64,000 nt of DNA from Dehalococcoidia bacterium (GTDB lineage Bacteria; Chloroflexota; Dehalococcoidia; SM23-28-2; RBG-16-64-32). Position 1 is the stretch's first letter. Each line of letters begins with the position of its first letter. Positions 26,014 through 42,535 of the stretch are shown piece after piece. The translations under genes were made by a program, and so were the position numbers. The stretch is from NCBI GenBank assembly GCA_030649945.1, contig JAUSFE010000050.1:1859-65858 (forward strand), given 5' to 3'. The notes beneath the pieces are model-generated. The model saw only the letters and a list, made by a program, of their open reading frames with translations. It did no database searches and was not told the origin of the DNA.

Positions 26014-27309
26014 ATGACGCAGACTGCAAGCAGCAACGCCCAGGACACCTACCGGCGGACGGTCCTGCCCAACGGCCTCCGCATCCTGACCGCGCCCATG
26101 CCCCATACCCACTCCGTGGCCCTGACGCTGTACGTGGGCACCGGCTCCCGCTACGAGCGGGACGAGGAGGCGGGGGTCTCGCACATCCTTGAGCACATGC
26201 TGTTCAAGGGCACGGAGAAGCGCCCGACGGCGAAAGAGATAGCGGAGGCGGTGGACGGCGTGGGCGGGGTGATCAACGGCGCGACCGACCGCGAGTACAC
26301 GGTGTACTACCTGAAGGTGGCTCGGCCGCACCTGGACCTGGCGCTGGACCTGCTGGTGGAGTTCGTGCGGCGGCCGCTGATTGACGCGCGGGAGATGGAG
26401 AAGGAGCGGCAGGTGGTGCTGGAGGAGCTGGCGATGGTGGCCGACTCGCCGCCGCAGATCGCGGACCTGCTCCTGGACTCCATCCTCTGGCCGGACAACC
26501 CCCTGGGCCGCGACATCGCCGGGACGCCGGAGACGGTGGGCGCCATCAGCCGCGAGGCGGTGCTGGATTACCTGCACGGGCAGTACGTGCCGAACAACAT
26601 CGTGCTGGCGGTGGCCGGGAACATCACGGACGAAGAGATCGTGGAGGCGCTGCGCGCGGCGCTGGGCGACTGGCAGCCGGGCACGCCGTCGTCCTGGGTG
26701 CCTGCGCCCAGCCAAAACGGTGTGCGCTGCGCCGTGCGCTACAAGGCCACGGAGCAGGCCCACATCAGCCTGGCGCTGCCGGGGCTGCCGCTGAACCACC
26801 CGGACCGCCACGCCATCTCGTTCCTCTCGGTGATCCTGGGCGAGGGGATGTCCTCGCGCCTGTTCCTGGAGCTGCGGGAGAAGCGCGGCCTGGTCTACGA
26901 CGTGCACACGTACGTCTCGCAGTTCCTGGACGTGGGCACGTTCAACATCTACACGGGCGTGGACCCGAAGAACGCCGTGGAGGCGCTGGGGGTGGTGCTG
27001 GCGGAGCTGGCGCAGTTGCGCGCGCAGGGCCCGGACAGCGGGGAGCTGACCAAGGCGCGCGAGCTGTCCAAGGGGCGGCTGCTGCTGCGCATGGAGGACA
27101 CGCGGGCGGTGAGCGGCTGGATCGGCGGGCAGGAGCTGTTGCTGGGGAAGGTGCGCGGCGTGGAGGAGGCGGTGGCGGAGATGGACGCGGTGACGCTGGA
27201 GGACCTGCAGCGCGTCTCTCGCGAGCTGCTGGACCCGCGCCAGACCTATCTGGCGGTCGTCGGGCCGTACCGGTCGGACAAGCGGTTCGCGTCGCTCTTG
27301 CCGGCGTAG
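26014..27309 (+). CDS. M16 family zinc peptidase (insulinase/pitrilysin-like)
   Basis: Inverted zinc motif HILEHMLFKG (HxxEH) and downstream E (REYTVYY... region). Start at MTQTASSNAQD. Confidence 0.85.
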   Translation: MTQTASSNAQDTYRRTVLPNGLRILTAPMPHTHSVALTLYVGTGSRYERDEEAGVSHILEHMLFKGTEKRPTAKEIAEAVDGVGGVINGATDREYTVYYLKVARPHLDLALDLLVEFVRRPLIDAREMEKERQVVLEELAMVADSPPQIADLLLDSILWPDNPLGRDIAGTPETVGAISREAVLDYLHGQYVPNNIVLAVAGNITDEEIVEALRAALGDWQPGTPSSWVPAPSQNGVRCAVRYKATEQAHISLALPGLPLNHPDRHAISFLSVILGEGMSSRLFLELREKRGLVYDVHTYVSQFLDVGTFNIYTGVDPKNAVEALGVVLAELAQLRAQGPDSGELTKARELSKGRLLLRMEDTRAVSGWIGGQELLLGKVRGVEEAVAEMDAVTLEDLQRVSRELLDPRQTYLAVVGPYRSDKRFASLLPA

Positions 27310-27358
27310 GCGCGAAGGGCAGTTGACGTGTTTCTGTATTTACGGCTATGCTTGGCTC

Positions 27359-27583
27359 ATGGCTACTAACAAAGCCCGGTTGACCATCGACCTTGAGCCG
27401 CAGCTCCATTCCAGGCTAAAGGTTGTGGCGGCGAAGAAGCGTACAAGCATGCGGGAGTACACAGTCGAGGCGATCGAGCGCCGGCTTGCGGAGGAGCCCG
27501 CCGAGTATCTCACGGCCGAGGCTGAGCCCGTCCTTGCGGAGCTATGGGACAACGATGATGACGCCGTCTACGACGATCTTTAG
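27359..27583 (+). CDS. ribbon-helix-helix (CopG/ParD-like) antitoxin
   Basis: MATNKARLTIDLEPQLHSRLKVVAAKKRTSMREYTVEAIERRL is the RHH pattern. Immediately precedes and overlaps the MazF-like gene. Confidence 0.6.
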   Translation: MATNKARLTIDLEPQLHSRLKVVAAKKRTSMREYTVEAIERRLAEEPAEYLTAEAEPVLAELWDNDDDAVYDDL

Positions 27584-27926
27584 CCGCGGCGATATCGTCC
27601 TCGTCCCATTCCAGTTCACCGATAAGCCCATTGCCAAGGTTCGCCCGGCCGCCGTCGTTAGCTCAACGTCATATCACTCGGCACGGCAAGAGGTGATCAT
27701 TGCGGCGATCACCAGCCGCGTCCGCGATCCGCTGCTCTTCGGCGACCACCTCATTCTCGGCTGGCGGACCGCCGGCCTGCCGAAACCGTCCGTTGTCACC
27801 GCTATCTTGCGCACGGTGAAGCAGGGGATGATCGCGCGCCGGGTGGGCAGGCTGGCGGAAGACGACCTCGCGCACGTGGACGGGCACCTCGCCGTGGCGC
27901 TGGCGCTGACGGCCGCCGCGCGATAA
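27555..27926 (+). CDS. PemK/MazF-family toxin (type II TA endoribonuclease)
   Basis: RGDIVLVPFQFTDKPIAKVRPAAVVSSTSYHSARQEVIIAAITSR is the MazF/PemK signature. The ORF-track start at 27423 is an out-of-context extension. Confidence 0.75.
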   Translation: MMTPSTTIFSRGDIVLVPFQFTDKPIAKVRPAAVVSSTSYHSARQEVIIAAITSRVRDPLLFGDHLILGWRTAGLPKPSVVTAILRTVKQGMIARRVGRLAEDDLAHVDGHLAVALALTAAAR

Positions 27927-27947
27927 CGGGCGCCGGAGCCCCCCGGC

Positions 27948-28003
27948 GGTCGTCGGGCCGTACCGGTCGGACAAGCGGTTCGCGTCGCTCTTGCCGGCGT
28001 AGA
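27948..28003. repeat. about 56-bp direct repeat duplicating the 3' end of the M16 peptidase gene (27250..27309); flanks the RHH-MazF cassette
   Basis: GGTCGTCGGGCCGTACCGGTCGGACAAGCGGTTCGCGTCGCTCTTGCCGGCGTAG occurs at 27250-27309 and again at 27948-28003. Confidence 0.8.
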
Positions 28004-28047
28004 CGTGCCGGCCTCCTGCCGTGCCCGGCTATAATAGAGGCGGCAGC

Positions 28048-28728
28048 GTGAAGACAATCCTCGTCGTAGACGATGAACCGACTCTGGCGGCCACGGTCCG
28101 CTACAACCTGGAGCAGGGCGGCTACCGGGTAATCACCGCTGCAGACGGTGAGTCCGGTCTTTCCCTGGCCCGCTCCGAACGCCCGGATACGATTGTCCTG
28201 GACCTGATGCTGCCCGGGCTGGATGGGCTGGACGTGTGCCGCATCCTGCGCCGGGAGTCCAGCGTGCCCATCCTGATGCTCACGGCCCGCGGTGAAGAGA
28301 CGGACCGTGTGGTGGGACTGGAACTGGGCGCGGACGACTACCTGACGAAGCCCTTCAGCATGCGCGAGCTGCTGGCCCGCGTGCGGGCGCTGCTGCGGCG
28401 CTCTGAGATGGCCACCCAGGTGGATGGCGAAGTAGTGACATGCGGAGATCTGGAAGTGGACGCCGCCCGCCACCAGGTACGCCGGTCCGGGGCTGAAGTC
28501 GCGCTGAAGCCCAAGGAATTCGAGCTCCTGGCGTTCTTGATGCGCAACCGCAGGCGAGTATTCACGCGGGAGCAGCTGCTGAACCAGATCTGGGGCTACG
28601 AGTTCGCCGGGGATACGCGGACAGTGGACGTGCACGTGAGCTGGTTACGCCAGAAGGTTGAGGACAACCCACAACACCCGGCGCTCATCGTTACGGTGCG
28701 CGGCATCGGCTACCGCTTCGACGGATGA
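28048..28728 (+). CDS. OmpR/PhoB-family response regulator (PhoB/PhoP-like, phosphate regulon)
   Basis: GTG start after the -10 TATAAT (28031). Receiver domain (ILVVDDEP...D...LMLPGLDG, K in LTKPF). Winged-helix output. Adjacent HK and pstSCAB-phoU. Confidence 0.85.
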   Translation: MKTILVVDDEPTLAATVRYNLEQGGYRVITAADGESGLSLARSERPDTIVLDLMLPGLDGLDVCRILRRESSVPILMLTARGEETDRVVGLELGADDYLTKPFSMRELLARVRALLRRSEMATQVDGEVVTCGDLEVDAARHQVRRSGAEVALKPKEFELLAFLMRNRRRVFTREQLLNQIWGYEFAGDTRTVDVHVSWLRQKVEDNPQHPALIVTVRGIGYRFDG

Positions 28729-30119
28729 AGTTGCCGGGCAGCCTCCGCGGCCGCAGCGCTGGCACGTACATCGCGCTCGTCGCCGTCGCCTATTCGCTCC
28801 TGGGCGTCTACCTCTCCAGCAAGGTGGAGAGCGGCAACGGTGACGCCCTTGCGCTGGCTCTCCTCGTCGCCTTCCTCGTCACCACCGCCGCCATCATCGT
28901 GGCCGGCCTGGTCCTGGGCCGGGCGGTATCGCGGCAGTTCAGCAGCCTTGCCGATGCCGCGCGCGCTATTGCGAGCGGGGAACTGGATACGCGCCTGGAC
29001 CCCGGGGTGTCCGCGGAGATGGGCGGATCAGCCAACGCCTTCAACGAGATGGCGGGCAGCTTGCAGTCGCTGATCGAGGCCGCATCGCAAGAGCGCAACC
29101 GCCTGCTGGCCTCGCTCAACAGCGCCACCGATGCAATCCTGGCCATAGGCGGAGATGGGCGCGTGGCGTTTGCGAACAGTAGCGCGGAGCTACTCTTCGA
29201 GCGTTCTCAGGCCGAACTTGTGGGCAACCCGCTGGCGTGGGTCCTGCCCAACAAGCAGGTGCTGGACGCGCTGCGGGCCAGCGCCGAAGACGGTCGCAGC
29301 GAAACTCAACTGATTGAGCGGCCGAACCGGCGTTCGTTGCAGGTCATCACCGCGCCGGTCATCGGCGGCGGCGAATGGACGGCGCTCGTCGTCTTCCACG
29401 ACATGACGGAGATGAGCCGCGTGGAGCAGGTGCGGCGGGACTTCATCGCCAACGTCTCGCATGAGCTGCGCACGCCGCTGGCTTCGGTGAAGGCGGTGAT
29501 CGAGACGCTACGCGGCGGGGCGATGAGAGACGAGCGTGTGGCCGCGGACTTCCTTTCACGAGCGGAGACGGAGGTGGACCGGCTGGTGGAGATTGTGGAG
29601 GAGCTGCTGGAGCTCTCACGCATCGAATCCGGGCTGGCGCCTATGGCCCAACAGCCGGTGGACCTGGGCGAGGTGTGCGCGCGAGCCGTGGAACGCCTGC
29701 GGGCGCAGGCGGAGAAGCAGGGCGTGAAGCTGCAGACGGAAGCCGCAACGAGGCTGCCGAACGTGACAGGCGATGCGGAGAGGCTGGAGCGGGCGGTGAT
29801 CAACCTGGTGCACAACGCTATCAAGTTCACGGCGCCCGGCGGCACGGTCACTGTGTCCACATGCCTCCTGGACGGGCGTGTTGCGGTGAGTGTGACGGAC
29901 ACGGGCGTGGGCATAGCGCCGGAGGACGTGCCGCGCATCTTTGAGCGGTTCTACAAGGCGGACCGCGCGCGCCAGGGCGGCGGCACGGGCCTGGGCCTGG
30001 CGGTGGTCAAGCACACCGCGGAAGCGCACGGCGGCACCGTGGCCCTCGAAAGCACACCGGGGGCGGGCTCCACGTTCACGCTCATCCTCCCGGCAACGGC
30101 CGCCTCTGTCCGCGGCTGA
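28725..30119 (+). CDS. sensor histidine kinase (HAMP-PAS-HisKA-HATPase; PhoR-like)
   Basis: H-box NVSHELRTPL; N-box LVHNAIKFT; G-boxes DTGVGI, GGTGLGLAVV; 2 TM + HAMP. Start overlaps the RR stop (ATGA). Confidence 0.85.
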   Translation: MKLPGSLRGRSAGTYIALVAVAYSLLGVYLSSKVESGNGDALALALLVAFLVTTAAIIVAGLVLGRAVSRQFSSLADAARAIASGELDTRLDPGVSAEMGGSANAFNEMAGSLQSLIEAASQERNRLLASLNSATDAILAIGGDGRVAFANSSAELLFERSQAELVGNPLAWVLPNKQVLDALRASAEDGRSETQLIERPNRRSLQVITAPVIGGGEWTALVVFHDMTEMSRVEQVRRDFIANVSHELRTPLASVKAVIETLRGGAMRDERVAADFLSRAETEVDRLVEIVEELLELSRIESGLAPMAQQPVDLGEVCARAVERLRAQAEKQGVKLQTEAATRLPNVTGDAERLERAVINLVHNAIKFTAPGGTVTVSTCLLDGRVAVSVTDTGVGIAPEDVPRIFERFYKADRARQGGGTGLGLAVVKHTAEAHGGTVALESTPGAGSTFTLILPATAASVRG

Positions 30120-30137
30120 CTTTCGGCGCTGCTCAAG

Positions 30138-30180
30138 TTTTACACTACGTTAACCGGCGTTAACGGGCGCTTAAAGGCGG
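30138..30180. promoter_or_regulatory. candidate PHO box: TTTACA followed by 10-11-bp-phased direct repeats of GTTAAC (CGTTAACCGG CGTTAACGGG CGCTTAAAGG)
   Basis: Nearly identical copies at 30778-30820 (upstream of the phosphatase gene) and 32103-32140 (about 45 bp upstream of pstS). Confidence 0.45.
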
Positions 30181-30268
30181 TTATCTACGATGGGGTCAGG
30201 ATGTGACCATGGTGGCAGAGAGCAGACAGCCGACCGCACCGAAGACAACGCCTCGCCCTGGGTTTCGA

Positions 30269-30697
30269 ATGGAGAAGACCAAGAGGATTGCGCTGATCGC
30301 GCACGACAACAAGAAGCCAGACCTGCTGGAGTGGGCGACGTTCAACAGACATACCCTTTCGCAACACGAGTTGTTTGCCACCGGAACGACAGGAACGATC
30401 CTCGCGACTGAACTTGGCGTCGAAATCACCAGATTTCGAAGCGGGCCGTTGGGAGGTGACCAGCAAGTCGGGGCGAAAATCACAGAAGGGGAAATTGACT
30501 TCGTAGTCTTCTTTTGGGATCCGCTCGAACCCCACCCCCATGATGTGGATGTCAAAGCCCTGCTTCGAATCGCTGTTGTTTACAACATCCCCATTGCCTG
30601 CAACCGGGCGTCAGCCGACTTCCTAATTTCCTCGCCTTTGATGTGTGCTGAATACGAGCGTTCTGTGCCTTCGGCGCTTCTCGCGCAGCCAGAATAG
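30269..30697 (+). CDS. mgsA: methylglyoxal synthase
   Basis: IALIAHDNKKPDLLEWA, LFATGTTG, GPLGGDQQVGA, DFVVFFWDPLEPHPHDVDVKALLRIAVVYNIPIACN. Start taken at MEKTKRIALIAHD. Markedly lower GC (about 52%) than the surrounding sequence. Confidence 0.8.
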   Translation: MEKTKRIALIAHDNKKPDLLEWATFNRHTLSQHELFATGTTGTILATELGVEITRFRSGPLGGDQQVGAKITEGEIDFVVFFWDPLEPHPHDVDVKALLRIAVVYNIPIACNRASADFLISSPLMCAEYERSVPSALLAQPE

Positions 30698-30777
30698 CAG
30701 GGGGCCGTCGTGGATTCCGCAGCTGGTGATACCTGTGGCCCCACTCCCGCGCTAGCATCCAACTTTCTCGCAAGACT

Positions 30778-30820
30778 TTTACATTACGTTAACCGGCGTT
30801 AACACGCGCTTAAAGCCACG
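30778..30820. promoter_or_regulatory. second copy of the candidate PHO box (TTTACATTACGTTAACCGGCGTTAACACGCGCTTAAAG)
   Basis: Direct repeat of the 30138-30180 motif, upstream of a long leader and the histidine phosphatase gene. Confidence 0.45.
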
Positions 30821-31121
30821 TGGCTAACATCAGTCCTAGAGGGAAGGGATTGATAACAAACGCAAGGAGCCAGCGGCAGTCCAGGACAGAACCGTTCAAG
30901 CAGGCTTCTGGCGCGCCACACAGCAGACTCGCGGGGGGAGAGCACCCCCAAGCTCTCCCGATGAGACCCGGTAGCTCCGGCGGTGGTGCGAGCCACCGCC
31001 GGAGCTCGTTCCGGTCAGCCACAGCAGGGGAAAGTGATGGCACGCGCCTGGCGAAGCTGATCCGCCGGCGCATCCTGATCTTATTGCCGGCGCAGCATGT
31101 GCGCACAGAAGGAGAGCTGCA

Positions 31122-31853
31122 ATGACCCGCACAGCCGTGGCCACGCGTGGTCCAGCCACAAGCGACGCCGTGTACTCCGTGGCGGTAGACGAAGCGCTGG
31201 AGCACTTATTCGGCCTGGCGGACACAGCTACCACGGAGCTGGTGCTGGTCCGTCACGCAGAGCCAGACCACAACCGCGCGCTGAGGGCTGGGGGCGCGTT
31301 CGATCCAGCGCTGAGCGAACGCGGGCGCTGCCAGGCGATGCGGCTGGCGATGCGCCTGCGGCCCGCTGACATAGCCGCCATCTACACTTCCACCGCCCGC
31401 GCCGCAGTGGAGACCGCGGCGGTGGTAGCCGCGGCGAAAGACATGCCCATGATCCGGGCGCCGCAGCTACGAGACCCGGCTGTGCATGGCTGCGCTGCAA
31501 GAGCAAAGGAGAGCGACCCTCAGAGGCTGGTGGCGGAGGCGACCGTGCGGTTCCTCAACCGGCCGCGCTGGGACGCCCTGCCGGGGCTGGAGCGCTCCAA
31601 GCAGTTCCGGCACCGCGTGGTGCAGGCACTGGAAGGCGTAGTCTCGCATCACTCCGGGAAGACGGTGGTTGTGGTCACGCACCAGGGCGTGATCAACGCG
31701 TATCTGAGCATGATTCTGGACATCCCGCGCGACGTGTTCTTCCTGCCTGACTACACTTCACTTTCGGTCGTACGGATCCTGTCGGACCGGTACGGAGTGC
31801 GGCATTTGAATGATACGGCCCACCTGCTCCCCGCAGGCAACCCGCGCGGATGA
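31122..31853 (+). CDS. histidine phosphatase (phosphoglycerate mutase superfamily; PhoE-like broad-specificity phosphatase candidate)
   Basis: RHG-type catalytic motif LVLVRHAEPDHN; C-terminal H in VVVTHQGVI; 243 aa. Confidence 0.75.
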   Translation: MTRTAVATRGPATSDAVYSVAVDEALEHLFGLADTATTELVLVRHAEPDHNRALRAGGAFDPALSERGRCQAMRLAMRLRPADIAAIYTSTARAAVETAAVVAAAKDMPMIRAPQLRDPAVHGCAARAKESDPQRLVAEATVRFLNRPRWDALPGLERSKQFRHRVVQALEGVVSHHSGKTVVVVTHQGVINAYLSMILDIPRDVFFLPDYTSLSVVRILSDRYGVRHLNDTAHLLPAGNPRG

Positions 31854-31879
31854 GAGCCGTGAGGTAAGGAGAGACAAAG

Positions 31880-32128
31880 TTGGATGAGGTCCTGGCTGCC
31901 ACGGACGAAGCCAGTCTGCGAGCGCAATACCTGATCTGCCAGCGGCTGGTGAGAGCGTGCCGCCACGCGATGTACGAAATAGCGCTGGATGAGGACGACG
32001 ACCAGAACGTCAGACGACTCGCCATCCAGGCGATGAAGGGCATTCTGGACGACTGGGCAGAAGCGCAGAAGAGCCTGCGGCGGGAGATGGAATCGCGGCA
32101 GATTTTACGGTCCGTTAACGCTGGTTAA
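31880..32128 (+). CDS. hypothetical small protein (82 aa)
   Basis: ORF with moderate GC located between the phosphatase gene and the third PHO-box copy; no recognisable motif. Confidence 0.35.
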   Translation: MDEVLAATDEASLRAQYLICQRLVRACRHAMYEIALDEDDDQNVRRLAIQAMKGILDDWAEAQKSLRREMESRQILRSVNAG

Positions 32129-32140
32129 CACAACGCTGAG
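32103..32140. promoter_or_regulatory. third copy of the candidate PHO box (TTTACGGTCCGTTAACGCTGGTTAACACAACGC) immediately upstream of pstS
   Basis: GTTAAC direct repeats with 11-bp phasing, 40-80 bp upstream of the pstS ATG at 32182. Confidence 0.45.
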
Positions 32141-32181
32141 GTTCGCGGGCTAAGATGCGGTTCAAGAAAGGGGGCAGATTG

Positions 32182-33180
32182 ATGAAATTCTTGCGCCGGA
32201 TGCGTTCGGCGATTTCTGAGTCCAGGTTGGTCCTGCTGCTGGTTGTGGCCGTCGCAGCCATGGCTGTGTTCGTGGCGTGCGGGGATGACGACAGCACCAG
32301 CGCTACCAAGACGCCGGGCGGCGCGCCCACGCAGACACCGGGGCCGCAACTCTCCGGAAGCATCAACGGCGACGGATCAAGCACCGTCTTTCCGATCTCC
32401 GAGGCCGTGGCCGAGGAGTTCCGCAAGGTGCAGCCCGGCGTGGACGTGGTGGTGGGCATCGCCGGCACCGGCGGCGGCTTCAAGAAGATCTGCAACGGCG
32501 AGACGGACTTCAACGACGCCTCACGGCCGGTGAAGGACGCGGAGACGCAGGCGTGCGCGGCCAAGAACATCGAACTCGTCGAGTTCCAGGTCGCGTTCGA
32601 CGGGCTGTCCGTCCTCGTCAACCCGGCCAACGACTTCGCCGAGTGCCTGACGGTAGCCGAACTGAAGAGCATCTGGCAGCCGGGCAGCACGATCAAGAAC
32701 TGGAAGGACGTGCGGGCGGGATTCCCGGACATGCCGCTCACCCTCTACGGACCGGACACGGACTCCGGGACCTTCGACTACTTCACGGAGGTGATCAACG
32801 GCGAGGCGAAGGCGAGCCGCCCGGACTACACGGCCAGCGCCGACGACAACACGCTGGTGCAGGGCATCGCCGGCGACGATAATGCCCTGGGATACTTCGG
32901 GTTCGCCTACTACGAGGAGAACCAGGATAAGCTAAAGCTGTTGGGCGTGGATGCGGGCAGCGGCTGCGTGCAGCCCTCCCGCGAGACGATCCTGGACGAG
33001 TCCTACGCCCCGCTATCCCGGCCGCTTTTCGTCTACGTGCGCGGGGATGCGCTGGAGCGTCCCGAAGTGAAGGCGTTCATGCGCTTTTACCTGGAGAACG
33101 GCAAGCAGCTGGTGGGCGAGGTGGGGTACGTGGAAGCGCCGGACTCCGTCTATCAGCAGGAGTTGGCGAAACTGAAATAG
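32182..33180 (+). CDS. pstS: phosphate ABC transporter substrate-binding lipoprotein PstS
   Basis: Lipobox VFVACG. PBP fold motifs [38 protein letters not shown]. Confidence 0.9.
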
Positions 33181-33259
33181 GCAAACTACTTCGAGCCTCT
33201 GTCTTGGCCAAGCATCCCTGAGCGCCCGGGGATGCTTGGCCCTTTTCCGGAGAAAAGGG

Positions 33260-34216
33260 GTGACCAAGGTGGCACTGGGCGAGACCGAACTGGCGCGGCG
33301 CTCCCGGGTGAGGCCGCGGGGGCCCCTGGAGGCGCGTCTGCGGCGAGGCCGCGAGGCTGTGATCCATGGGGTGCTCTTCCTCTGCGCCTTCGTGTCCATC
33401 CTGACGACGGCCGGCATCATCGCCACGCTGCTGGAGGAGACGATCGGCTTCTTTGGCCAGGTCTCCATCTGGGATTACCTGACGGGGACCAGGTGGACGC
33501 CCCTTTTCAGCCCCGCCAGCTTCGGCATCCTGCCGCTCCTGGCCGGGACGCTGCTGGTGGCGGCGTTCGCGGCGCTATTCGCGGTGCCCATCGGCCTGCT
33601 CACCGCCGTCTTCCTGAGCGAATACGCCCCTTCCTGGCTGCGCAGCATCGCCAAGCCGCTCCTGGAAATGCTGGCCGGCATCCCCACCGTGGTGCTGGGC
33701 TTCTTTGCCCTCACGTTCATCTCGCCGGAGATCATCCGTCCGTTCTCGAATGCCAGCGTCTTCAACGCGCTGGCGGCGGCGATCGCCGTTGGGATCATGA
33801 TCATCCCCCTGATCTCATCGCTGAGCGAGGACGCGATGAGCGCGGTCCCCCAGAGCCTGCGAGAGGGCGCCTACGCCCTGGGGGCGACGAAGTACGAGGT
33901 CGCGCGGCGGGTCGTCATCCCGGCCGCCCTTTCGGGCATCGTCGCCTCGTTTATCCTGGCGATCTCGCGCGCGTTAGGGGAGACGATGATCGTCGTGCTG
34001 GCGGCAGGCGGCACGCCGAACCTGACGTGGAACCCGCTGGAGGCCGTGCAAACGATGACGGCCTACATCGTGCAGGTGAGCCTGGGCGATACACCGCAGG
34101 GCAGCCTGGAGTTCCAGACGATCTTCGCGGTGGGGATGACGCTGTTCGTGATGACGCTGGCGCTGAACGTGGTCAGTCAGTACCTGCTGCAGAAGTTCCG
34201 GGAGGTGTACGAATGA
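33260..34216 (+). CDS. pstC: phosphate ABC transporter permease PstC
   Basis: Six TM helices; EAA-like loop; start approximate (GTG after RBS GGAGAAAAGGGG; the ORF-track ATG at 33236 is also possible). Confidence 0.8.
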
Positions 34217-35094
34217 CCGTCTCGCAGGCGCATTTCCGCAGGCGCCTGCTCCTGCGCAGGGCTGCCGGCATCGCCTTTGCGGCGCTCTGCGTGGCCGCCA
34301 CCGCGGCGGCCATCGCTGCCCTGGGCGTGCTGCTGGTGCAGGTCGCCGCGAAGGGCATCGACAGGGTCGGCTGGGACTTCCTCAACGCCTTCCCCTCCCG
34401 GAAGCCGGAGGAGGCGGGGATCAAGGCGGCGCTCTGGGGGACGATCTGGCTGATGGGGCTGACGGCGGCGTTCGCCGTGCCGCTGGGGCTGGGCGCCGCG
34501 ATCTACCTTGAGGAGTACGCGCCCCGCAACTGGCTGACGCGGGTGATCCAGGTCAACATCGCCAACCTGGCCGGCGTGCCTTCGATCGTCTACGGGTTGC
34601 TGGGGCTGGCGCTCTTCGTGCGGGCGCTGGAGCTGGAGCGCAGCGTCCTGGCCGGGTCGCTGACGATGGCGCTGCTCGTGTTGCCGATCGTCATCATCGC
34701 CTCCCAGGAGGCGCTGCGGGCCGTGCCGAACTCCATCCGCGAGGCGGGGTGGGCGCTGGGCGCCACGCGGTCGCAGGTGGTGTTCAGACAGGTGGTGCCG
34801 GCGGCGCTGCCCGGGATCATGACGGGCATCATCCTGGCGCTTTCGCGCGCGATCGGGGAGACGGCGCCGCTGATCATGATCGGCGCGCTGCTGTTCGTCC
34901 CGTTCACGCCCAGCGGCCCCATGGACAGGTTCACGGTCCTTCCCATCCAGATCTTCAACTGGGCGTCCCGGCCGCAGAAGGAGTTCCAGGTGGACGCGGC
35001 GGCCGGGATCATCGTGCTGTTGGCCGTGCTGCTGGCGATGAACTCGGTCGCTATCGTCCTGCGCAACCGTTTCCAGGCGGGCGGCCGGAGGTAG
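34213..35094 (+). CDS. pstA: phosphate ABC transporter permease PstA
   Basis: ATG overlaps the pstC stop (ATGA); permease with motif [27 protein letters not shown]. Confidence 0.85.
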
Positions 35095-35097
35095 ATA

Positions 35098-35985
35098 ATG
35101 ATCCGCGAGCGTCTAGAGGACATTCTGCGAGAGAGAGCGAGGCTACAGACGGGCGATCCTCAAATGGAAGCGGCGGAAGCGGCGCCCCCAGCAGCGGCGG
35201 CGCCCCCGGCGGCTGAAGATCCGGGCGCCGCCCTCCGCACCGAGGGGCTGGCGGTGTACTACGGTCACTTCCAGGCGCTGCGTGACGTGTCGCTGCAGGT
35301 GCCCGGCAACCGGGTGACGGCGATCATCGGCGCCTCCGGTTGCGGCAAGAGCACGCTGCTGCGCTGCTTCAACCGCATGAACGATGCGATCCCGGGCTTC
35401 CGCCTCCAGGGCGCCGTGCTGTTCAAGGGCCAGGACATCTACGAACGCGGCGTGGACGTGGTGGACGTGCGCCGGCGCATCGGGATGGTGTTCCAGAAGC
35501 CGAACCCGTTCCCGAAGTCGATCTACGAGAACGTGGCGTTCGGGCCGCGCATCAACGGGTACGAGGGGCGTCTGGACGAGATAGTGGAGCGGGCGCTGCG
35601 CCACGCCGCCCTCTGGGAAGAGGTGAAGGGCAAGCTGCGGCAGGGCGCGCTGACCCTGTCAGGCGGCCAGCAGCAGCGCCTGTGCATCGCGCGGGCGCTG
35701 GCGGTGGAGCCGGAGGTGATCCTGATGGACGAGCCGTGCTCTGCGCTGGACCCGGTGGCCACGCTCAAGATCGAGGACTTGATGCGGGAGCTGGCGAAGG
35801 AGTATACGATCGTCATCGTCACGCACAATATGCAGCAGGCGGCGCGCGTCTCGGACTGGACGGCGGTGATGATGATGGCGGAGGACCGGGCGGGCGAGAT
35901 GGTAGAGTTCGCGGATACCAGGAGCATCTTCACCAACCCTCGTGACAAGCGGACGGAGGACTACATCACCGGCCGCTTCGGCTAG
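35098..35985 (+). CDS. pstB: phosphate ABC transporter ATP-binding protein PstB
   Basis: Walker [10 protein letters not shown]; signature [15 protein letters not shown]; Walker [12 protein letters not shown]. Confidence 0.9.
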
Positions 35986-35996
35986 GAGACGGGCCA

Positions 35997-36662
35997 ATGA
36001 CACGCACAGCTTTCGAGCACCAGCTGGAGGAGATCCAGGAGGACATGCTGACCATGGCCGGCCTGGTGGAGCTGGCCATTGAGCGCGGCATTGAGGCGCT
36101 GAAGACCCGCAACGCGGACCTGGCGCGGCAGATCATCGCCGACGACCTGACGATCAACCGGATGCGATACGAGACGGAAGACAAGTGCCTGGAGCTGATC
36201 GCCACCCAGCAGCCGCTGGCCAGCGACCTGCGCACGATAGTCTCCGTCCTGCACATCACGGTCGATCTCGAGCGCATGGGCGACCACGCCGAGGGCATCG
36301 CCAAGATCGCCATCATGCTGGCGGACGAGGCGCCGCTCAAGCCGTACATCGATATCCCGCGCATGGCCGAGATCGGAATGCGGATGCTGATGGACAGCCT
36401 GGAGGCGTTCAAGCAGCGCGATACGGCGCTGGCGCGCGCCGTCTGCAACCGGGACGACGAGGTGGACGCGCTGTACGAGCAGGTCTACCAGAAGCTGCTT
36501 GGGTTCATGATCCAGGACCCGCAGACGATCCAGCGGGCCACGTACCTGATGTGGGTGGCGCACAACCTGGAGCGCATCGCGGACAGGGTCACGAACATCT
36601 GCGAGCGCGTGGTCTATCTGGTGGACGGGCACATCGAAGAGATGAACGTCTCGAAGTACTGA
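35997..36662 (+). CDS. phoU: phosphate signalling complex protein PhoU
   Basis: 221 aa; two PhoU repeats (DxxxD...ERxxDH pattern: LERMGDHAEGIAK, LERIADRVTNICE). Confidence 0.9.
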   Translation: MTRTAFEHQLEEIQEDMLTMAGLVELAIERGIEALKTRNADLARQIIADDLTINRMRYETEDKCLELIATQQPLASDLRTIVSVLHITVDLERMGDHAEGIAKIAIMLADEAPLKPYIDIPRMAEIGMRMLMDSLEAFKQRDTALARAVCNRDDEVDALYEQVYQKLLGFMIQDPQTIQRATYLMWVAHNLERIADRVTNICERVVYLVDGHIEEMNVSKY

Positions 36663-36875
36663 CGGCGCGCGGCAGGGAACTGGGAGTCAGGAGCTGGGAA
36701 CTAGGAGCCGCCCCGCCCGCGCACGCCGTCACGCGCAGAACGCCGTAGGGGCGCACGGCGTTCGCCCCTACGTTTGCGTTGGGCCGTCGCCTGCCGCGTA
36801 AGGCCGGGCGGTTGACAGCGAGTGGGCCGGCGGTATGCTTGTAACGCGTCCCGCTTCGGCGCATGGAGGGCCACC

Positions 36876-38243
36876 GTGGAACAACAGATCCGCTTCTGCA
36901 CAACAACTGACGGCGTGCGCATCGCCTACGGCACCGTGGGCCAGGGGCCGCCGCTGATCCGCGTGCTGGGCTGGTTCACTCACCTGGAGTTCGAGTGGGA
37001 GAACCCCCGCTGGCGCCGTCTTTACGAAGGCATGGCGGACCGCTTCACCTACATCCGCTACGACGGAAGGGGGATGGGTCTTTCCGACAGGGACGTGACC
37101 GACTTCTCGTCGGATGCCTTCGTGCATGATCTGGAAGCGGTAGTCGATGCCACGGGTTTTGAGAGGGTCGCGCTCTACGGCATCTCTCAGGGAGGTCCTA
37201 CGGCCATCCTCTACGCTCTGCGCCACCCGGAGCGCGTCAGCCACCTCATAATCTACGGCTCCGCCGTTCGGTCTACCTGGCCTGAAGAGCAACAGGAGAT
37301 GATGCTGTCCCTAATCCGCCAAGGCTGGGGCAGCGACGTCCCTGCTCACCGTCAGTTCTTCACTGGCCTGTTCATGCCTGACGGTGATATGGAGGCGATT
37401 CAGGCGTTCAACGAGATGCAGCGGGTGTCGGCCTCGGCCGAGAACGTTGCGGCGATGCTCACGCCGCCGCCGGAACTCCCTCCATTCGATCTTAGAGAAT
37501 TGCTGCCTCAAGTCGCTGTGCCAACCCTCGTGATCCACCGGCGCGGCGACGCCATCGTCCCCTTCGAGGCAGGACGCGAGATCGCCGCCGGCATTCCCGG
37601 CGCCCGTTTCCTCCCTCTGGAGGGTAGGAACCACGCCGCCCTTGCCGACGCGGATCAGCCGGTCATGGAGATTATGGCCAAGGCCATCGCCGACTTCGTG
37701 GGCGAAGGCCAGCAGGCCGTCACCGCGGACACGCCCTCCGGGATGGTCACCATCCTCTTCACGGACATGGAGGGCTCTACCACCCTCACTCAGCGGCTGG
37801 GGGACGCCAGGGCGCAGGAGGTGCTGCGCGCCCACAACACCATCGTCCGCGAGGCGCTGAAGGCGCACGGGGGCAGCGAAATCAAGCACACCGGCGACGG
37901 CGTCATGGCCTCGTTCCCAACGGCCTCCGGCGCGCTGGAGTGCGCCATCGCCGTGCAGCTGGCCTTCGCCGCGCACAACGAGTCGGCCGAGACGCCCGTC
38001 CGCGTGCGCATCGGCCTGAACGCGGGCGAGCCGGTGGCGGAGGAAGAGGACCTGTTCGGCACGGCCGTGCAGCTAGCCGCCCGTGTATGCGCCCAGGCTG
38101 AGCCGGGCCGGATCCTGGTGCCGGACGGCGTGCGTCACCTGGTGGCCGGCAAGGGGTTCCTGTTCTCGGACCAGGGCGACGTCGTCCTGCGGGGCTTCGA
38201 GGACCCCGTGCGGCTCTACGAGGTGCGCTGGGAGGAGGCCTAG
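36876..38243 (+). CDS. alpha/beta-hydrolase domain fused to class III adenylyl/guanylyl cyclase catalytic domain (LipJ/Rv1900c-like), copy A
   Basis: GTG start with RBS GGAGGG. Hydrolase nucleophile elbow GISQGG. CHD motifs FTDMEGST (metal Asp), EIKHTGDG (Lys + Asp), GLNAGEP (Asn), and R in GRILV. Confidence 0.8.
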   Translation: MEQQIRFCTTTDGVRIAYGTVGQGPPLIRVLGWFTHLEFEWENPRWRRLYEGMADRFTYIRYDGRGMGLSDRDVTDFSSDAFVHDLEAVVDATGFERVALYGISQGGPTAILYALRHPERVSHLIIYGSAVRSTWPEEQQEMMLSLIRQGWGSDVPAHRQFFTGLFMPDGDMEAIQAFNEMQRVSASAENVAAMLTPPPELPPFDLRELLPQVAVPTLVIHRRGDAIVPFEAGREIAAGIPGARFLPLEGRNHAALADADQPVMEIMAKAIADFVGEGQQAVTADTPSGMVTILFTDMEGSTTLTQRLGDARAQEVLRAHNTIVREALKAHGGSEIKHTGDGVMASFPTASGALECAIAVQLAFAAHNESAETPVRVRIGLNAGEPVAEEEDLFGTAVQLAARVCAQAEPGRILVPDGVRHLVAGKGFLFSDQGDVVLRGFEDPVRLYEVRWEEA

Positions 38244-38245
38244 CC

Positions 38246-39592
38246 ATGGAACAACAGATCCGCTTCTGCACAACCTCCGACGGGGTGCGCATCGCCTACG
38301 CCACTGCAGGCCAGGGCCCGCCGCTGGTGCTGATCACCGCTTGGGTGGGTCACCTTCAGTTCGAATGGAGCCACGCCGAGACCAAGGCGTTCTACGAAGG
38401 CTTGGCGAACGGGCGGCTACTCGTTCGCTTTGACAAGCGTGGCACCGGCCTAAGCGACAGGCAGGCAGAAGACTTCTCCGTAGAGGCGCGCCTGCGCGAT
38501 CTGGAGGCGGTGGTCGATGCCCTGCGCCTGAAACGCTTTGCCCTCATGGGCTTTTCCGAGAGCGGGCCCACGGCCATAATCTACGCAGCCCGCCATCCTG
38601 AGCGGGTGACGAACCTCGTCATCTATGGCTCCTACCACCGCTGGCCGTACCCTGCAGGGGCCGCCAATCCCGTCATGGCCCTGATCCGCTCGCAGTGGGG
38701 CATGGGATCAGCGGCGCTCTCTGCCATCTTCGTTCCCTCCGGCGATCCCGCCCAGGTAGCGTGGTGGACGGAGTTGCAGCGGGTCTCGGCCTCGCCAGAG
38801 AGTGCTGCCTCTATCTTCGAAGTGAACACCGGGCTTGATGTGACCTCCGTTCTCAGTGACATCCGGGCCCCGGCCCTCGTCATTCACCGGAACAACGATA
38901 CTGTCTGCCCCTTCGATGTCGCTCGCGAGATGGCTGCCCTCATCCCGGCTGCCCGTTTCGAGCCCCTGGAAGGCGATATCCATCCCCCCATGTTCGGCGA
39001 CACTGCCGCCGTCCTCAACGCCGTAGATTCCCTGCTGCCCAGCGGCGCGCGCCGCAGGCAGGCCGTCACCGCGGGCACGCCCTCCGGCCTCGTCACCATT
39101 CTCTACACCGACATGGAGGGCTCTACCCCCCTGACCCAGCGACTGGGCGACGCCAAAGCGCAGGAGGTGCTGCGCGCGCACAACACCATCGTCCGCGAGG
39201 CCCTCAAGGCGCACGGCGGGTCCGAGATCAAGCACACCGGCGACGGCGTCATGGCCTCCTTCCCAACGGCCTCCGGCGCGCTGGAGTGCGCCATCGCCGT
39301 GCAGCAGGGCTTCGCCGCGCACAACGAGTCGGCTGAGACGCCCGTCCGCGTGCGCATCGGCCTGAACGCGGGCGAGCCGGTGGCGGAGGAAGAGGACCTG
39401 TTCGGCACGGCCGTGCAGCTGGCGGCGCGCGTCTGCGCCAGGGCGGAGCCGGGGCAGGTCCTGGCCTCGAACGTGGTGCGTGAGCTGGCCGCCGGCAAGG
39501 GGTTCCTGTTCTCCGACCAGGGCGACGTGGTCCTGCGCGGCTTCGAGGATCCCGTGCGGCTGTACGAGGTGCGCTGGCAAGCGGCGGGCTGA
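38246..39592 (+). CDS. alpha/beta-hydrolase + class III cyclase fusion, copy B
   Basis: Starts 2 nt after the copy A stop. Hydrolase elbow GFSESG. The CHD region is about 95% identical to copy A (LYTDMEGSTPLTQRLGDAKAQEVLRAHNTIVREALKAHGGSEIKHTGDGVMASF...). Confidence 0.8.
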   Translation: MEQQIRFCTTSDGVRIAYATAGQGPPLVLITAWVGHLQFEWSHAETKAFYEGLANGRLLVRFDKRGTGLSDRQAEDFSVEARLRDLEAVVDALRLKRFALMGFSESGPTAIIYAARHPERVTNLVIYGSYHRWPYPAGAANPVMALIRSQWGMGSAALSAIFVPSGDPAQVAWWTELQRVSASPESAASIFEVNTGLDVTSVLSDIRAPALVIHRNNDTVCPFDVAREMAALIPAARFEPLEGDIHPPMFGDTAAVLNAVDSLLPSGARRRQAVTAGTPSGLVTILYTDMEGSTPLTQRLGDAKAQEVLRAHNTIVREALKAHGGSEIKHTGDGVMASFPTASGALECAIAVQQGFAAHNESAETPVRVRIGLNAGEPVAEEEDLFGTAVQLAARVCARAEPGQVLASNVVRELAAGKGFLFSDQGDVVLRGFEDPVRLYEVRWQAAG

Positions 39593-41028
39593 TGGACGCG
39601 CCGCCCATCCAGTACGCGAAGACCGCCGACGGCGTCAGCATCGCCTTCTGGACGCTCGGCGAAGGCCCCCCGCTCGTGATCCTGCCCAACCTGACCGCCA
39701 GTCACGTGCAGGTGGAGTGGGAGTGGGACGTCCGCCGGATCGCCTACCAGCGGCTGGCGCAGCACGCCACGGTCATCCGCTACGATTGTCGCGGCCTGGG
39801 GCTGTCTCAGCGCGATTGCCCCGACTTCTCCGCCGAGGCAGGGGGCCTCGACCTGGAGGCCGTCGTTGACCGCCTCGGCCTGGAGCGCTTCGCCATCTAC
39901 GGCTCCGACTCCACGGGCGACGTAACTTTCGCCTTCCCCGCCGGCCATCCGGAGCGGGTGAGTCACTTGATCATCGGCGTGCCGCATATCCAGCGCGGCT
40001 TCCGCCGCCGCCTGGCCGCCGTTCAGCCGCTCATTGATCAGGACTGGGAGCTGTTCATCGAAATCTTTCCGCGGCTCGCGGGGGGTTGGGACAGCCCCCA
40101 GGCGGCCCAGGTGCCGGCTGTGATGATGGGTACGCACACGCCCTCTAGCTTCCGCTCGGCTCTCGACGCGATGGCCGCCTTCTCGCCGGAGCCCTACCTG
40201 GCGGCTATTCAGGCGCCGTCGTTGATCATGCACCCGCTGCAGAGCGGCCGGGACAACCGGACAGCGCGAGTGCTGGCGGGCGCTATCGCCGGCGCTCACA
40301 TGGTAGGAATCCCGGGCTGGCCGCTCGCCTCAACACTCAACGAGACGGCCGTTGCGGCCATCCTGGACTTCATCAATACCGCGCCGGCCGCGCCGGGCCA
40401 CGCGATCCCCGCGCCGCAGATAGACATCAGCGCCGTCCGCACCATCGTCTTCACCGATGTCGAAGGCTCCACGGCGCTCAATGAGCGGCTCGGCGACGAG
40501 GGCGCCCGGGAGGTCCTGCGCGAGCACGAGCGACTGACGCGCGAGGCGCTCGCGTCGCACGGCGGCTCCGAGGTGAAGGCGATGGGCGACGGCTTCATGG
40601 CCTGGTTCCCATCGGCGACGCGCGCTGTGGAGTGCGCCATCGCCTTACAGCAAGCGTTTGACGAACGTAATCGGAAGGTAGGGGCGCAGCAACATGAGCC
40701 AAGTAGGAAGGATATCGAATCGTCTTCCGATGTTGCTGCGCCCCTACGCACCGCCTCCCGGCCACGCCTCGACACGCCCGAACCGATCCGCGTCCGTATC
40801 GGCATCAACGCCGGGGAGCCAATTGCCGAAGGAGACGACCTCTTCGGCGCATCGGTGATCACGAGCGCCCGCATCACCGCGCAGGCGAAGGGCGGCCAGA
40901 TCCTGGCTTCGGACGTGGTGCGCCAGCTCCTCGCCGGCAAGGGGTTCCTCTTCTCCGACCAGGGCGACGTCGTCCTGCGCGGCTTCGAGGACCCCGTGCG
41001 CCTGTACGAGGTGCGCTGGCGCCAGTAG
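39592..41028 (+). CDS. alpha/beta-hydrolase + class III cyclase fusion, copy C (carries an in-frame REP-element insertion in the CHD)
   Basis: ATG overlaps the copy B stop (TGATG). CHD motifs FTDVEGST, EVKAMGDGFMAWF, GINAGEP. The hydrolase GxSxG motif is degenerate (YGSDSTG). Extra 30 aa (KVGAQQHEPSRKDIESSSDVAAPLRTASRPRLDTPEP) relative to A/B/D. Confidence 0.8.
   Translation: MDAPPIQYAKTADGVSIAFWTLGEGPPLVILPNLTASHVQVEWEWDVRRIAYQRLAQHATVIRYDCRGLGLSQRDCPDFSAEAGGLDLEAVVDRLGLERFAIYGSDSTGDVTFAFPAGHPERVSHLIIGVPHIQRGFRRRLAAVQPLIDQDWELFIEIFPRLAGGWDSPQAAQVPAVMMGTHTPSSFRSALDAMAAFSPEPYLAAIQAPSLIMHPLQSGRDNRTARVLAGAIAGAHMVGIPGWPLASTLNETAVAAILDFINTAPAAPGHAIPAPQIDISAVRTIVFTDVEGSTALNERLGDEGAREVLREHERLTREALASHGGSEVKAMGDGFMAWFPSATRAVECAIALQQAFDERNRKVGAQQHEPSRKDIESSSDVAAPLRTASRPRLDTPEPIRVRIGINAGEPIAEGDDLFGASVITSARITAQAKGGQILASDVVRQLLAGKGFLFSDQGDVVLRGFEDPVRLYEVRWRQ
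40683..40752. mobile_element. REP-like palindromic element (GTAGGGGCGCAGCA...TGCTGCGCCCCTAC, long loop) inserted in-frame inside cyclase copy C
   Basis: Same palindrome arms as the intergenic REP copies at 19843, 22568, 43255 etc. Replaces the short ESAETP linker present in copies A and B. Confidence 0.7.
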
Positions 41029-41131
41029 GGGCGAACCGCCGTTCGCCCCTACGTTTGCCTTGCGTCTTCGCCTGCCTCCACCGCACCCGGCCGGTAGCCG
41101 CGCGGCATTTGACACGGTTGCGACCAGGAGT

Positions 41132-42535
41132 ATGATTCACGGTGCGGAGTGGCGTGAAAACGAAGTGAACCCATCGATCCAGTACGTGCACACGGCTGAT
41201 GGGGTCGCCATCGCCTACTGGGCCCTGAACGAGGGGCTGCCGCTGGTCTATGCGCCCATTATCCCCTTCAGCCACATTCAGCTGGAGTGGCAGATCCCGC
41301 AGTGCCGCCGCTGGTACGAGCAGCTGGCCGGCCACCGGCAGTTGATCCGCTATGACGCACGCGGCTGCGGCCTCTCGGAGCGCGACGTCTCGGACTTCTC
41401 GCTGGACGGGCTCGTCCTGGACCTGGAAGCGGTGGCAGACGGCTTGCACCTGGACAACTTCGCGCTGTTCGCCTCGTCTGACGCCTCGATGATGGCGATC
41501 GCTTACGCGGCGCGGCACCCGGATCGCGTGTCGCACCTGATCCTCTGGAGCGCGTGGGCGCGGCGAGAGGACGTCTCGCGGTCCGCGCAGGCGCGCTCGC
41601 TGCGCGCCGTCCTGGAGCAGGACTGGACCATCTACACGGAGACCGTGGCGCGCGTGCTGATGGGCTGGGCTGCGGAAGGGCCGGCGCGCGAGTTCGCGGC
41701 CTTTTACCGGGCGTGCACCAGCGCGGACGCCGTTCGCGCGCTGGCGGCGTCCGCCTACGAGACCGACGTGTCGGCTCTACTCCCCCAGATCAGGTGCCCG
41801 ACCCTGGTGGTGCACCGCAGCCACATCCCCGGCGTGGGCCTGCCCGTTGTGCGCGACCTGGCGGCCCGCATCCCCAACGCCCGCCTGGCGCTCCTGGAGG
41901 GGTTGTCTCCGCTGCCCTTCTTGGAAGACACGCAAGCGGTTGTACGGGCCATTCAGGTGTTCTTGGGGGAAGAGCCGGAAGACGATGCGGCCGCGCCGGA
42001 TGTCGCGGGCCGGGCGATCGCCAGCGCACCCGTCACGATCCTCTTCACGGACATGCAGAGCTCCACCGCCATGACGCAGCGCCTGGGGGACGCGCGGGCC
42101 CAGGACGTGCTGCACGTGCACAACAGCATCGTGCGGGCCGCGCTGAAGCGGCTGGACGGGTCGGAGGTCAAGCACACGGGGGACGGCATCATGGCCTCGT
42201 TCGCTTCGGCGACGAGAGGGCTGGAGTGCGCCGTCGCCATCCAGCGGGCGCTGGCCACCCACAACGCCTCTGCGCCGGACGGCGCGATCCACGTGCGTAT
42301 CGGCCTGAACGCCGGCGAGCCCGTGGCGGAGGAGTCGGACCTCTTCGGAACGGCAGTCCAGATCGCCGCGCGCGTCTGCGAGCATGCGGAGCCGGACCAG
42401 ATCCTGGTGTCGAACGTCGTGCGCGAGCTGGCGTCCGGGAAGGGGTTCCTGTTCTCGGACCGCGGCGACAGTGTGTTGCGCGGCTTCGAGGACCCGGTGC
42501 GGCTGTTCGAGGTGAGGTGGTCGCCCGGCGACTAA
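41132..42535 (+). CDS. alpha/beta-hydrolase + class III cyclase fusion, copy D (most divergent)
   Basis: Start approximate (internal ATG giving MIHGAEWRENEV...; the ORF-track TTG at 41060 lies within a REP hairpin). CHD motifs FTDMQSST, EVKHTGDGIMASF, GLNAGEP. Hydrolase nucleophile motif lost (FASSDAS). Confidence 0.75.
   Translation: MIHGAEWRENEVNPSIQYVHTADGVAIAYWALNEGLPLVYAPIIPFSHIQLEWQIPQCRRWYEQLAGHRQLIRYDARGCGLSERDVSDFSLDGLVLDLEAVADGLHLDNFALFASSDASMMAIAYAARHPDRVSHLILWSAWARREDVSRSAQARSLRAVLEQDWTIYTETVARVLMGWAAEGPAREFAAFYRACTSADAVRALAASAYETDVSALLPQIRCPTLVVHRSHIPGVGLPVVRDLAARIPNARLALLEGLSPLPFLEDTQAVVRAIQVFLGEEPEDDAAAPDVAGRAIASAPVTILFTDMQSSTAMTQRLGDARAQDVLHVHNSIVRAALKRLDGSEVKHTGDGIMASFASATRGLECAVAIQRALATHNASAPDGAIHVRIGLNAGEPVAEESDLFGTAVQIAARVCEHAEPDQILVSNVVRELASGKGFLFSDRGDSVLRGFEDPVRLFEVRWSPGD

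Follow-up and report, generated by a model that had tools for sequence, protein, structure and literature searches.

Across a 64,000-nucleotide stretch of a Dehalococcoidia bacterium genome (contig JAUSFE010000050.1; hereafter the window), three copies of a four-unit direct repeat precede mgsA, which encodes a methylglyoxal synthase, a histidine phosphatase gene, and pstS, the first gene of a pstSCAB-phoU cluster. We conclude that the three elements are most probably Pho-box promoters of the PhoB/OmpR type, and that the mgsA module was inserted recently by recombination. An earlier note on this DNA had pointed to a motif upstream of these genes in three copies, with GTTAAC units phased at 10-11 bp; exact searches, searches with mismatches and a position weight matrix (PWM) all recovered the three copies, and the phasing fits unit starts 11, 10 and 11 bp apart (30138/30149/30159/30170 in the first copy).

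The 38-bp motif TTTACAYTACGTTAACCGGCGTTAACRSGCGCTTAAAG matches exactly at 30139–30176 and at 30778–30815. The core pattern GTTAAC-N4-GTTAAC occurs at only three sites in the window (30149, 30788 and 32114), all of them within 30138–32141, and permitting two mismatches does not change the count; the chance expectation from dinucleotide shuffles is 0.00 for exact sites and 0.20 with two mismatches. The motif search suggested in the earlier note, run over the 64 kb, thus returned no sites outside the regions upstream of mgsA, the phosphatase gene and pstS. All three copies have TTTAC-N5-GTTAAC-N4-GTTAAC in common, and alignment of the three regions shows an invariant TTTTAC, GTTAAC and GTTAAC, then CTAnnAT 20 nt past the second GTTAAC. 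The four units of a copy read TTTTAC, GTTAAC, GTTAAC and CTTAAA, the fourth being degenerate in the pstS copy, and a -10-like hexamer lies exactly 10 nt past unit 4. On the + strand, copy 1 and its -10 span 30138–30191 (TTTTAC 30138–30143, GTTAAC 30149–30154, GTTAAC 30159–30164, CTTAAA 30170–30175, TACGAT 30186–30191), copy 2 spans 30777–30830 (TTTTAC 30777–30782, GTTAAC 30788–30793, GTTAAC 30798–30803, CTTAAA 30809–30814, TAACAT 30825–30830), and copy 3 spans 32103–32156 (TTTTAC 32103–32108, GTTAAC 32114–32119, GTTAAC 32124–32129, the degenerate GCTGAG 32135–32140, TAAGAT 32151–32156). From the end of copy 3 to the start codon of pstS the distance is about 40 nt.

The PWM was built from 20 sites of this kind. 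Its consensus is nAanTTTTACnnncCGTTAAncnnCGTTAACanCcCgTTAAa-N10-cTAnnnT, with information peaks at 0, 11, 21 and 32; the information content is carried by the TTAAC units and not by the spacers, and the T, A and T columns of the -10 hexamer hold 1.7–1.9 bits each over the 20 sites. Copies 1, 2 and 3 score 48.8, 54.4 and 37.5 bits, respectively, against 9.0 bits for the next-best score in the window and at most 9.5 bits for the best of 20 random sequences. A consensus sigma-70 promoter scan of 27900–32300 returned zero -35/-10 pairs. By definition, a PHO box consists of two direct repeats of 11 nt that are bound in a head-to-tail arrangement (PMC4415409). All three copies carry at least two direct repeats about one helical turn (11 nt) apart, the element stands upstream of pstS and is kept there in relatives, and the array would serve in place of a -35, with a TAnnnT -10 about 10 bp beyond its end.

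Related loci in public (metagenomic) assemblies were located via orthologues of the phosphatase, and the box was found in L089, L114/L203, L116, L149, L198, L202, L205, L207/L208, L209, L210/L211 and L213. In at least 10 related lineages, the same motif stands in the same orientation upstream of the orthologous phosphatase gene and pstS. Upstream of pstS, scores reach at least 50 bits in L089, L114/L203, L116, L198, L202, L207, L209, L210/L211 and L213; the L205 pstS site scores 37 bits, and the L149 contig stops before pstS. Sites of this strength also lie upstream of the phosphatase gene in most related loci and upstream of mgsA in L210/L211, and L116 carries the motif twice between phoR and pstS. 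No site of at least 50 bits was found elsewhere in these related loci, and within the roughly 2 Mb of fetched loci every such site falls in a pho locus. The gene-facing strand always outscores the reverse strand by about 20–30 bits. In a metagenome scan with a 17-base pattern, the matches listed included five contigs with hits of at least 50 bits (L089, L114, L116, L149 and L198), all of them pho loci and the sole true relatives among the matches, and were otherwise mostly unrelated recurring families with no unit 4 and scores below 45 bits. In 80 diverse genomes, Anaerolineae and Clostridia among them, TTAAC-N5/6-TTAAC shows about 8-fold enrichment within the 350 nt preceding pstS, and this type of box therefore seems widespread outside Proteobacteria.

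Gene order around the box is kept to varying extents. The cluster of phosphatase, small protein and pstSCAB-phoU is retained in many lineages, with phoB-phoR directly upstream in L203/L114, L213 and L198 and unrelated genes in that place in L202, L205, L207 and L209. The phosphatase gene and the gene for the small, 82-amino-acid protein are ancestral parts of the pst cluster and do not belong to a small Pho-regulon islet as proposed in the earlier note. A genome-collection search with PstS gave best relatives that are 48–62% identical and taxonomically scattered, with no close reference genome. In L202 (7509–7583) and L207 (7474–7548), the opposite strand carries a gene for tRNA-Lys(UUU) some 80–90 nt upstream of the phosphatase Pho box. 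Two recurrent high-GC metagenomic families, unrelated to pho loci, carry GTTTAC-N5-GTTAAC-N4-GTTAAC (members L083, L097, L102, L118, L122, L132, L145 and L167; L099, L100, L103, L104, L163, L176 and L201); in the two members checked, L167 and L099, the gene of a secreted protein of about 500–520 amino acids follows directly downstream.

By sequence comparison, mgsA is a very recent import by recombination at a Pho box. From 30170 to 30695 the window differs from L210 by 5 mismatches in 526 nt (99% DNA identity). MgsA is 98% identical in protein to its counterparts in L210/L211, where PhoR, the phosphatase and PstS are only 62–74% identical; at third codon positions, mgsA is 100% and 98% identical to L210 and L211, respectively, and the flanking genes 45–66%. 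In both hosts, the G+C content of mgsA at third codon positions (GC3) is 0.63, compared with 0.79–0.96 for its neighbours. L210 and L211 have mgsA at the same place, in the order phoR-mgsA-phosphatase. By contrast, L203, L114, L198 and L213 have no mgsA between phoR and the phosphatase gene, nor does the phoR-pstS interval of L116 contain it. The near-identical segment begins inside copy 1, at unit 4 (30170), and spans the -10 and the leader; because these three lie in the 99%-identical segment, mgsA must have travelled with its own Pho-type promoter. The suggestion that mgsA is an acquired cassette captured under Pho control is therefore upheld as to acquisition, by its absence in five lineages, its 99% DNA identity and its GC3, but not as to capture by a resident promoter. 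Likewise, its G+C content does lie below that of its surroundings, as GC3 indicates, but at 55–56% and not at the 52% first given.

Traces of the insertion remain downstream of the gene. A + strand segment at 30721–30776 is a relic of a donor-type (L211-like) phoR 3′ end and spacer, with its TAG stop at 30753–30755; 83 of 95 positions in window 30721–30815 match L211 1184–1278, which in L211 comprises the phoR end, the spacer and the box upstream of mgsA. The order of mgsA followed by the phoR relic is circularly permuted relative to the donor arrangement, as expected from a single crossover between the resident box and a circularised or tandemly duplicated donor segment. Copies 1 and 2 are both products of one recombination event, and so we count them as one piece of motif evidence. 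The repeats flanking mgsA are host-type promoter sequence. Among the genes annotated between ~14.9 and 49.3 kb we found no integrase or transposase domain of the kind that would accompany an integron-type or integrase-borne cassette.

A similar insertion signature occurs upstream of phoB. There, 27237–28023 holds a ParD-like antitoxin gene (27359–27583) and a PemK/MazF-like toxin gene (27555–27926) between an M16 peptidase gene and phoB, and on either side of the pair stands one copy of a perfect 58-bp direct repeat, a duplication of the 3′ end of the peptidase gene. A more distant mgsA, in L212 (87% amino acid identity), is preceded by the three-unit repeat CTTAAC-N4-GTTAAC-N5-GTTTAAG and a -10-like TATGCT. 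Repeats of the GTTAC/GTTAAC type also precede three neighbouring genes in L212, including that of a PstS-like binding protein (repeat positions 531–600, 3156–3230, 4154–4220 and 5885–5950). These repeats may represent a variant Pho box.

Pfam and NCBIfam searches confirmed that the locus encodes PhoB/PhoR-like proteins together with pstSCAB-phoU, as the earlier note had read it, though the regulator and kinase score below the PhoB and PhoR equivalog cut-offs. From the regulator gene to phoU, all genes lie on the + strand. An OmpR/PhoB-family response regulator, the candidate Pho regulator (28048–28728; Pfam Response_reg and Trans_reg_C), is followed by a PhoR-like sensor kinase with HAMP, PAS, HisKA and HATPase domains (28725–30119; Pfam), mgsA (30209 or 30269 to 30697; NCBIfam), the cytoplasmic histidine phosphatase of the His_Phos_1/PGAM superfamily (31122–31853; Pfam), the 82-amino-acid helical-hairpin protein (31880–32128; gene call and conservation), pstS (32182–33180), pstC (33260–34216), pstA (34213–35094), pstB (35098–35985) and phoU (35997–36662), where the pst genes and phoU were identified with both Pfam and NCBIfam. 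An identical 6.9-kb Logan contig, L001, matches the window, and pstC and pstA were called on it; a 620-amino-acid open reading frame at 33232–35094 was discarded as an artefact of overlapping frames, the true genes being pstC and pstA. Proteins identical to the window phosphatase and MgsA are labelled 'Dehalococcoidia bacterium' by NCBI. By eye, the PstS sequence shows a lipoprotein-type signal peptide. Directly downstream of phoU, at 36822–42535, are four tandem paralogues, each an alpha/beta-hydrolase fused to an adenylate/guanylate cyclase domain.

Neither partner of the two-component pair reaches the PhoB or PhoR equivalog model (TIGR02154, TIGR02966). The regulator scores 258.9 bits against PhoB (cut-off 296.2) and 271.7 against MtrA (cut-off 300), and its nearest solved structures are MtrA and RegX3; the best model for the kinase is PnpS (328 bits, cut-off 400), then PhoR (278 bits, cut-off 334.2). 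We infer the Pho role of the pair from context, given these scores: its domain architecture and its linkage to pstSCAB-phoU fit a Pho system. In the window, L203 and L213/L214, the sequence preceding phoB contains no Pho box or half-site, and autoregulation through the motif is therefore not indicated in these loci. The window phoB (28048) has a perfect TATAAT at 28030–28035, 12 nt before its GTG start, and L203 and L213 have similar -10s near the start codon; the position of the TATAAT suggests that the predicted phoB transcript is near-leaderless.

MgsA passes both methylglyoxal synthase equivalog cut-offs, with 173.9 bits against 146.9 for TIGR00160 (MGSA) and 210.1 against 84 for PRK05234. 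The phosphatase matches Pfam His_Phos_1 at 1e-38 over residues 40–232, and its translation contains the catalytic RH motif, in 'VRHAEP', and a second histidine, in 'THQG'. It stays below every NCBIfam equivalog cut-off, the best model being PspA, at 94 bits against a cut-off of 350. Its relatives carry the automatic JGI name 'broad specificity phosphatase PhoE', and its orthologues are always linked to the 82-amino-acid gene and pstS, in keeping with the PhoE type proposed earlier for this PGAM-family enzyme.

The 82-amino-acid gene was called and is conserved in 6 lineages, always between the phosphatase gene and pstS. The protein has invariant C20, C27, DW and RR, and no Pfam or NCBIfam match. 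Its AlphaFold2 model shows two helices with a predicted local distance difference test (pLDDT) score of 83.5, a generic helical hairpin for which a Foldseek search at E up to 0.001 gave no match. We take the protein to be genuine and conserved, with this hairpin fold. At its 3′ end the gene overlaps Pho box copy 3, and Pho-box units 1–2 encode its last codons; in relatives, the C-terminal FTAR-stop is likewise encoded by Pho-box units 1–2.

A leader of about 290 nt (30837–31121) separates box copy 2 from the phosphatase start and contains a two-hairpin element on the + strand at 30937–31006. In hairpin P1, 30937–30943 pairs with 30952–30958 (GGAGAGC/GCTCTCC) around a C-rich loop; P2 (30973–31006) is a 14-bp G+C-rich stem. 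RNAalifold on 9 leader sequences gave 20 pairs, 10 with compensatory changes, and a covariance model places it solely in front of the phosphatase gene, with one match per locus, and finds none in L198 and L213. Rfam returned nothing relevant, either across the whole window at gathering thresholds or at E up to 10 for 30700–31200. The element is a candidate cis-regulatory RNA. An open frame of 91 codons (30850–31125) overlaps the hairpins and has an ATGA overlap with the phosphatase start. Relatives share motifs resembling its PHAL, PGSSGG and RLARLLTRR, although L203 has them in different frames; the open frame has no Pfam or NCBIfam match, and a search of 1.84 billion protein representatives gave only two spurious low-complexity matches. 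The frame is probably non-coding. We rejected the idea that P1 acts as a decoy for an anti-Shine-Dalgarno (anti-SD) stretch sequestering the phosphatase ribosome-binding site: in the window, the minimum-free-energy fold has an 8-bp pairing, but other lineages, by eye, keep only generic SD/anti-SD complementarity.

We propose the following mechanism. The consensus TTTTAC-N5-GTTAAC-N4-GTTAAC-N5-GTTAAA, at 11/10/11 bp, would leave room for two head-to-tail dimers of the phosphorylated regulator (28048–28728); because the layout matches published Pho boxes (PMC1906773, PMC4415409), we take each element to be two adjacent boxes, one per dimer. Ending 10 bp upstream of the cTAnnnT -10, the array would stand in for a -35, and the bound regulator would recruit RNA polymerase when PhoR (28725–30119) senses low phosphate via PstSCAB-PhoU. 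Transcription would presumably start from these -10s, and the controlled units would be mgsA, the phosphatase gene with the 82-amino-acid gene, and pstSCAB-phoU. Such a regulon would join high-affinity phosphate uptake with two cytoplasmic enzymes that free phosphate from phospho-metabolites, MgsA by converting dihydroxyacetone phosphate (DHAP) into methylglyoxal and phosphate. The module of about 0.6 kb, comprising a Pho-type promoter, mgsA and the donor phoR 3′ stub, came from a related Dehalococcoidia lineage and was recently inserted in the resident Pho box or beside it. Most simply, the donor segment, circularised or tandemly duplicated, may have entered by a single crossover, after which the box copies were homogenised.

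Several observations weigh against this proposal. The regulator and kinase fall under the PhoB and PhoR equivalog cut-offs, with slightly higher scores for MtrA and PnpS, and phoB lacks a box in the window, L203 and L213/L214, unlike the autoregulated phoBR of E. coli. The sites are quasi-palindromic, as GTTAAC is itself palindromic, and their reverse strands score 20–40 bits. Copies 1 and 2 are more alike (40 of 43 positions identical) than either is to the L210/L211 box, which a one-step crossover does not suffice to explain, and we therefore assume later homogenisation or a more complex event. Finally, the source-genome scan spans 64 kb, the breadth of the regulon being covered within those limits only, and the window and L001, though identical, may share the same reads.

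The sites could instead be the operator of another, symmetric regulator, such as a pst repressor binding GTTAAC pairs as a dimer or tetramer, with the PhoB-type regulator uninvolved. The self-complementarity of GTTAAC and the reverse-strand scores would suit such a protein, as would the sub-cut-off score of the adjacent regulator, and near phoU several related loci have a gene for an additional protein whose sole domain is Trans_reg_C. That extra gene, however, was not seen in the annotated ~14.9–49.3 kb of the window. Every site faces its downstream gene and scores 20–30 bits better in that direction, and units 1 (TTTTAC) and 4 (GTTAAA) differ systematically. Together with the 11/10/11 spacing, the end 10 bp before the -10 and the absence of a -35, which is the layout of a class II activator (PMC1906773, PMC4415409), this asymmetry makes a symmetric binder distinctly unlikely. 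Promoters of an alternative sigma factor, with TTTACA as the -35 and no activator site, seem exceedingly improbable: TTTACA does resemble TTGACA, and a conserved TAnnnT follows, but the 41 nt from TTTACA to the -10 exceed any sigma-factor spacer, the consensus scan found no -35/-10 pair, and the conserved information is periodic over four units.

Two further alternatives concern the repeats as products of rearrangement or assembly. If the 38-bp repeats flanking mgsA were mere insertion scars, their likeness to the sequence upstream of pstS would be incidental; copies 1 and 2, at 40 of 43, do flank a transferred segment, and the ParD/PemK cassette is also flanked by a repeat, of 58 bp and perfect. 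Yet the motif keeps the same register to the -10 in lineages without mgsA (L203, L198, L202, L205, L207, L209 and L213) and lies between phoR and pstS in L116, and its information is concentrated in the TTAAC units and not in the spacers, so that we regard scars as very unlikely. The order of box, mgsA, phoR relic and box could also be a chimera of two co-occurring strains, as the source is a metagenome-assembled genome and the sole second assembly (L001) may use the same reads. Against this, the longest exact repeats between the boxes are about 19–22 nt, which we judge short for assembler mis-joins, both junctions are graded and recombinant-like with no abrupt switch, and the independent assemblies L210 (ENA) and L211 (JGI) share the phoR-mgsA-phosphatase order. 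A chimera is thus highly improbable, and Pho-box promoters with a recently inserted mgsA module remain the preferred reading.

Among known systems, the window boxes are closest to the cyanobacterial CTTAACCT type. The host is monoderm, and the box of PhoP in Bacillus subtilis consists of TT(A/T/C)ACA direct repeats with a period of about 11 bp, bound by multiple dimers per promoter; the TTTACA and TTAAC(A/C) units of the window fit that consensus. With its HAMP and PAS domains the window kinase resembles Gram-positive PhoR, yet it stays below the equivalog cut-offs. In Synechocystis, SphR binds at least three tandem 8-bp CTTAACCT repeats with 3-bp linkers (PMC1906773). At least three repeats with a CTTAACCT-like core, CGTTAACC, CGTTAACG and GCTTAAAG, are present here when compared with that published consensus (PMC1906773). 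The elements share with the SphR box of Synechocystis PCC 6803 a TTAAC core, three to four tandem units at a period of about 11 bp, a position upstream of pst and an adjoining PhoB-type system. They differ in their four units at 11/10/11, the invariant first TTTTAC, the G+C-rich spacers and the host, which is no cyanobacterium with an SphR orthologue but a member of the Dehalococcoidia (Chloroflexota), the source being labelled 'Dehalococcoidia bacterium'. In E. coli, PhoB recognises tandem 8+3-bp repeats that stand 10 bp ahead of a TAN3T -10 (PMC1906773). Like the E. coli box at pstS, made up of two 11-nt direct repeats with a CTGTCAT core, the window elements are doubled direct repeats with units spaced by one helical turn; they stand in for the -35 and leave 10 bp to a TAN3T -10 (PMC1906773, PMC4415409). 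Unlike in E. coli, the core sequence is another, phoBR has no box and the regulator is closer to MtrA/RegX3.

The placement of mgsA also has a physiological rationale. Phosphate inhibits MgsA, which when phosphate is limiting liberates it from DHAP (PMC11850910), so that Pho control of an enzyme that both releases phosphate and is inhibited by it makes sense. The E. coli mgsA promoter has been stated to be activated in phosphate starvation (PMC10665441). The window enzyme belongs to the same family as that of the methylglyoxal bypass of E. coli and Salmonella, which likewise releases phosphate from DHAP when phosphate is scarce (PMC11850910). Whereas in those bacteria MgsA is inhibited allosterically by phosphate, in the window the link to phosphate would also be transcriptional, via the putative Pho box. 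Our literature search found no paper placing mgsA behind a Pho box, and none on a Pho box in Dehalococcoidia or Chloroflexi.

A bolder pair of ideas, that the Pho box doubles as a recombination target and that the two-hairpin leader represents a new class of cis-regulatory RNA, is speculative, and we consider these readings rather unlikely. If the former were true, promoter and gene modules such as that of mgsA, and by analogy ParD/PemK, would spread between Dehalococcoidia by single-crossover insertion into an existing regulon. If the latter were true, the Pho response would have a second, post-initiation layer of control.

Since the element is a regulatory device of a well-known kind in a further lineage, its novelty is modest, and the general understanding of Pho regulation is unchanged. 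What the locus offers is a base-resolved case of the very recent transfer of a promoter and gene module into a regulon, and an arrangement in which transcriptional control would bring the methylglyoxal bypass, along with a cytoplasmic histidine phosphatase, into the Pho response. For the Dehalococcoidia, abundant and mostly uncultured bacteria of subsurface and marine habitats, it provides a concrete, testable operator model and a PWM for their phosphate-starvation regulon.

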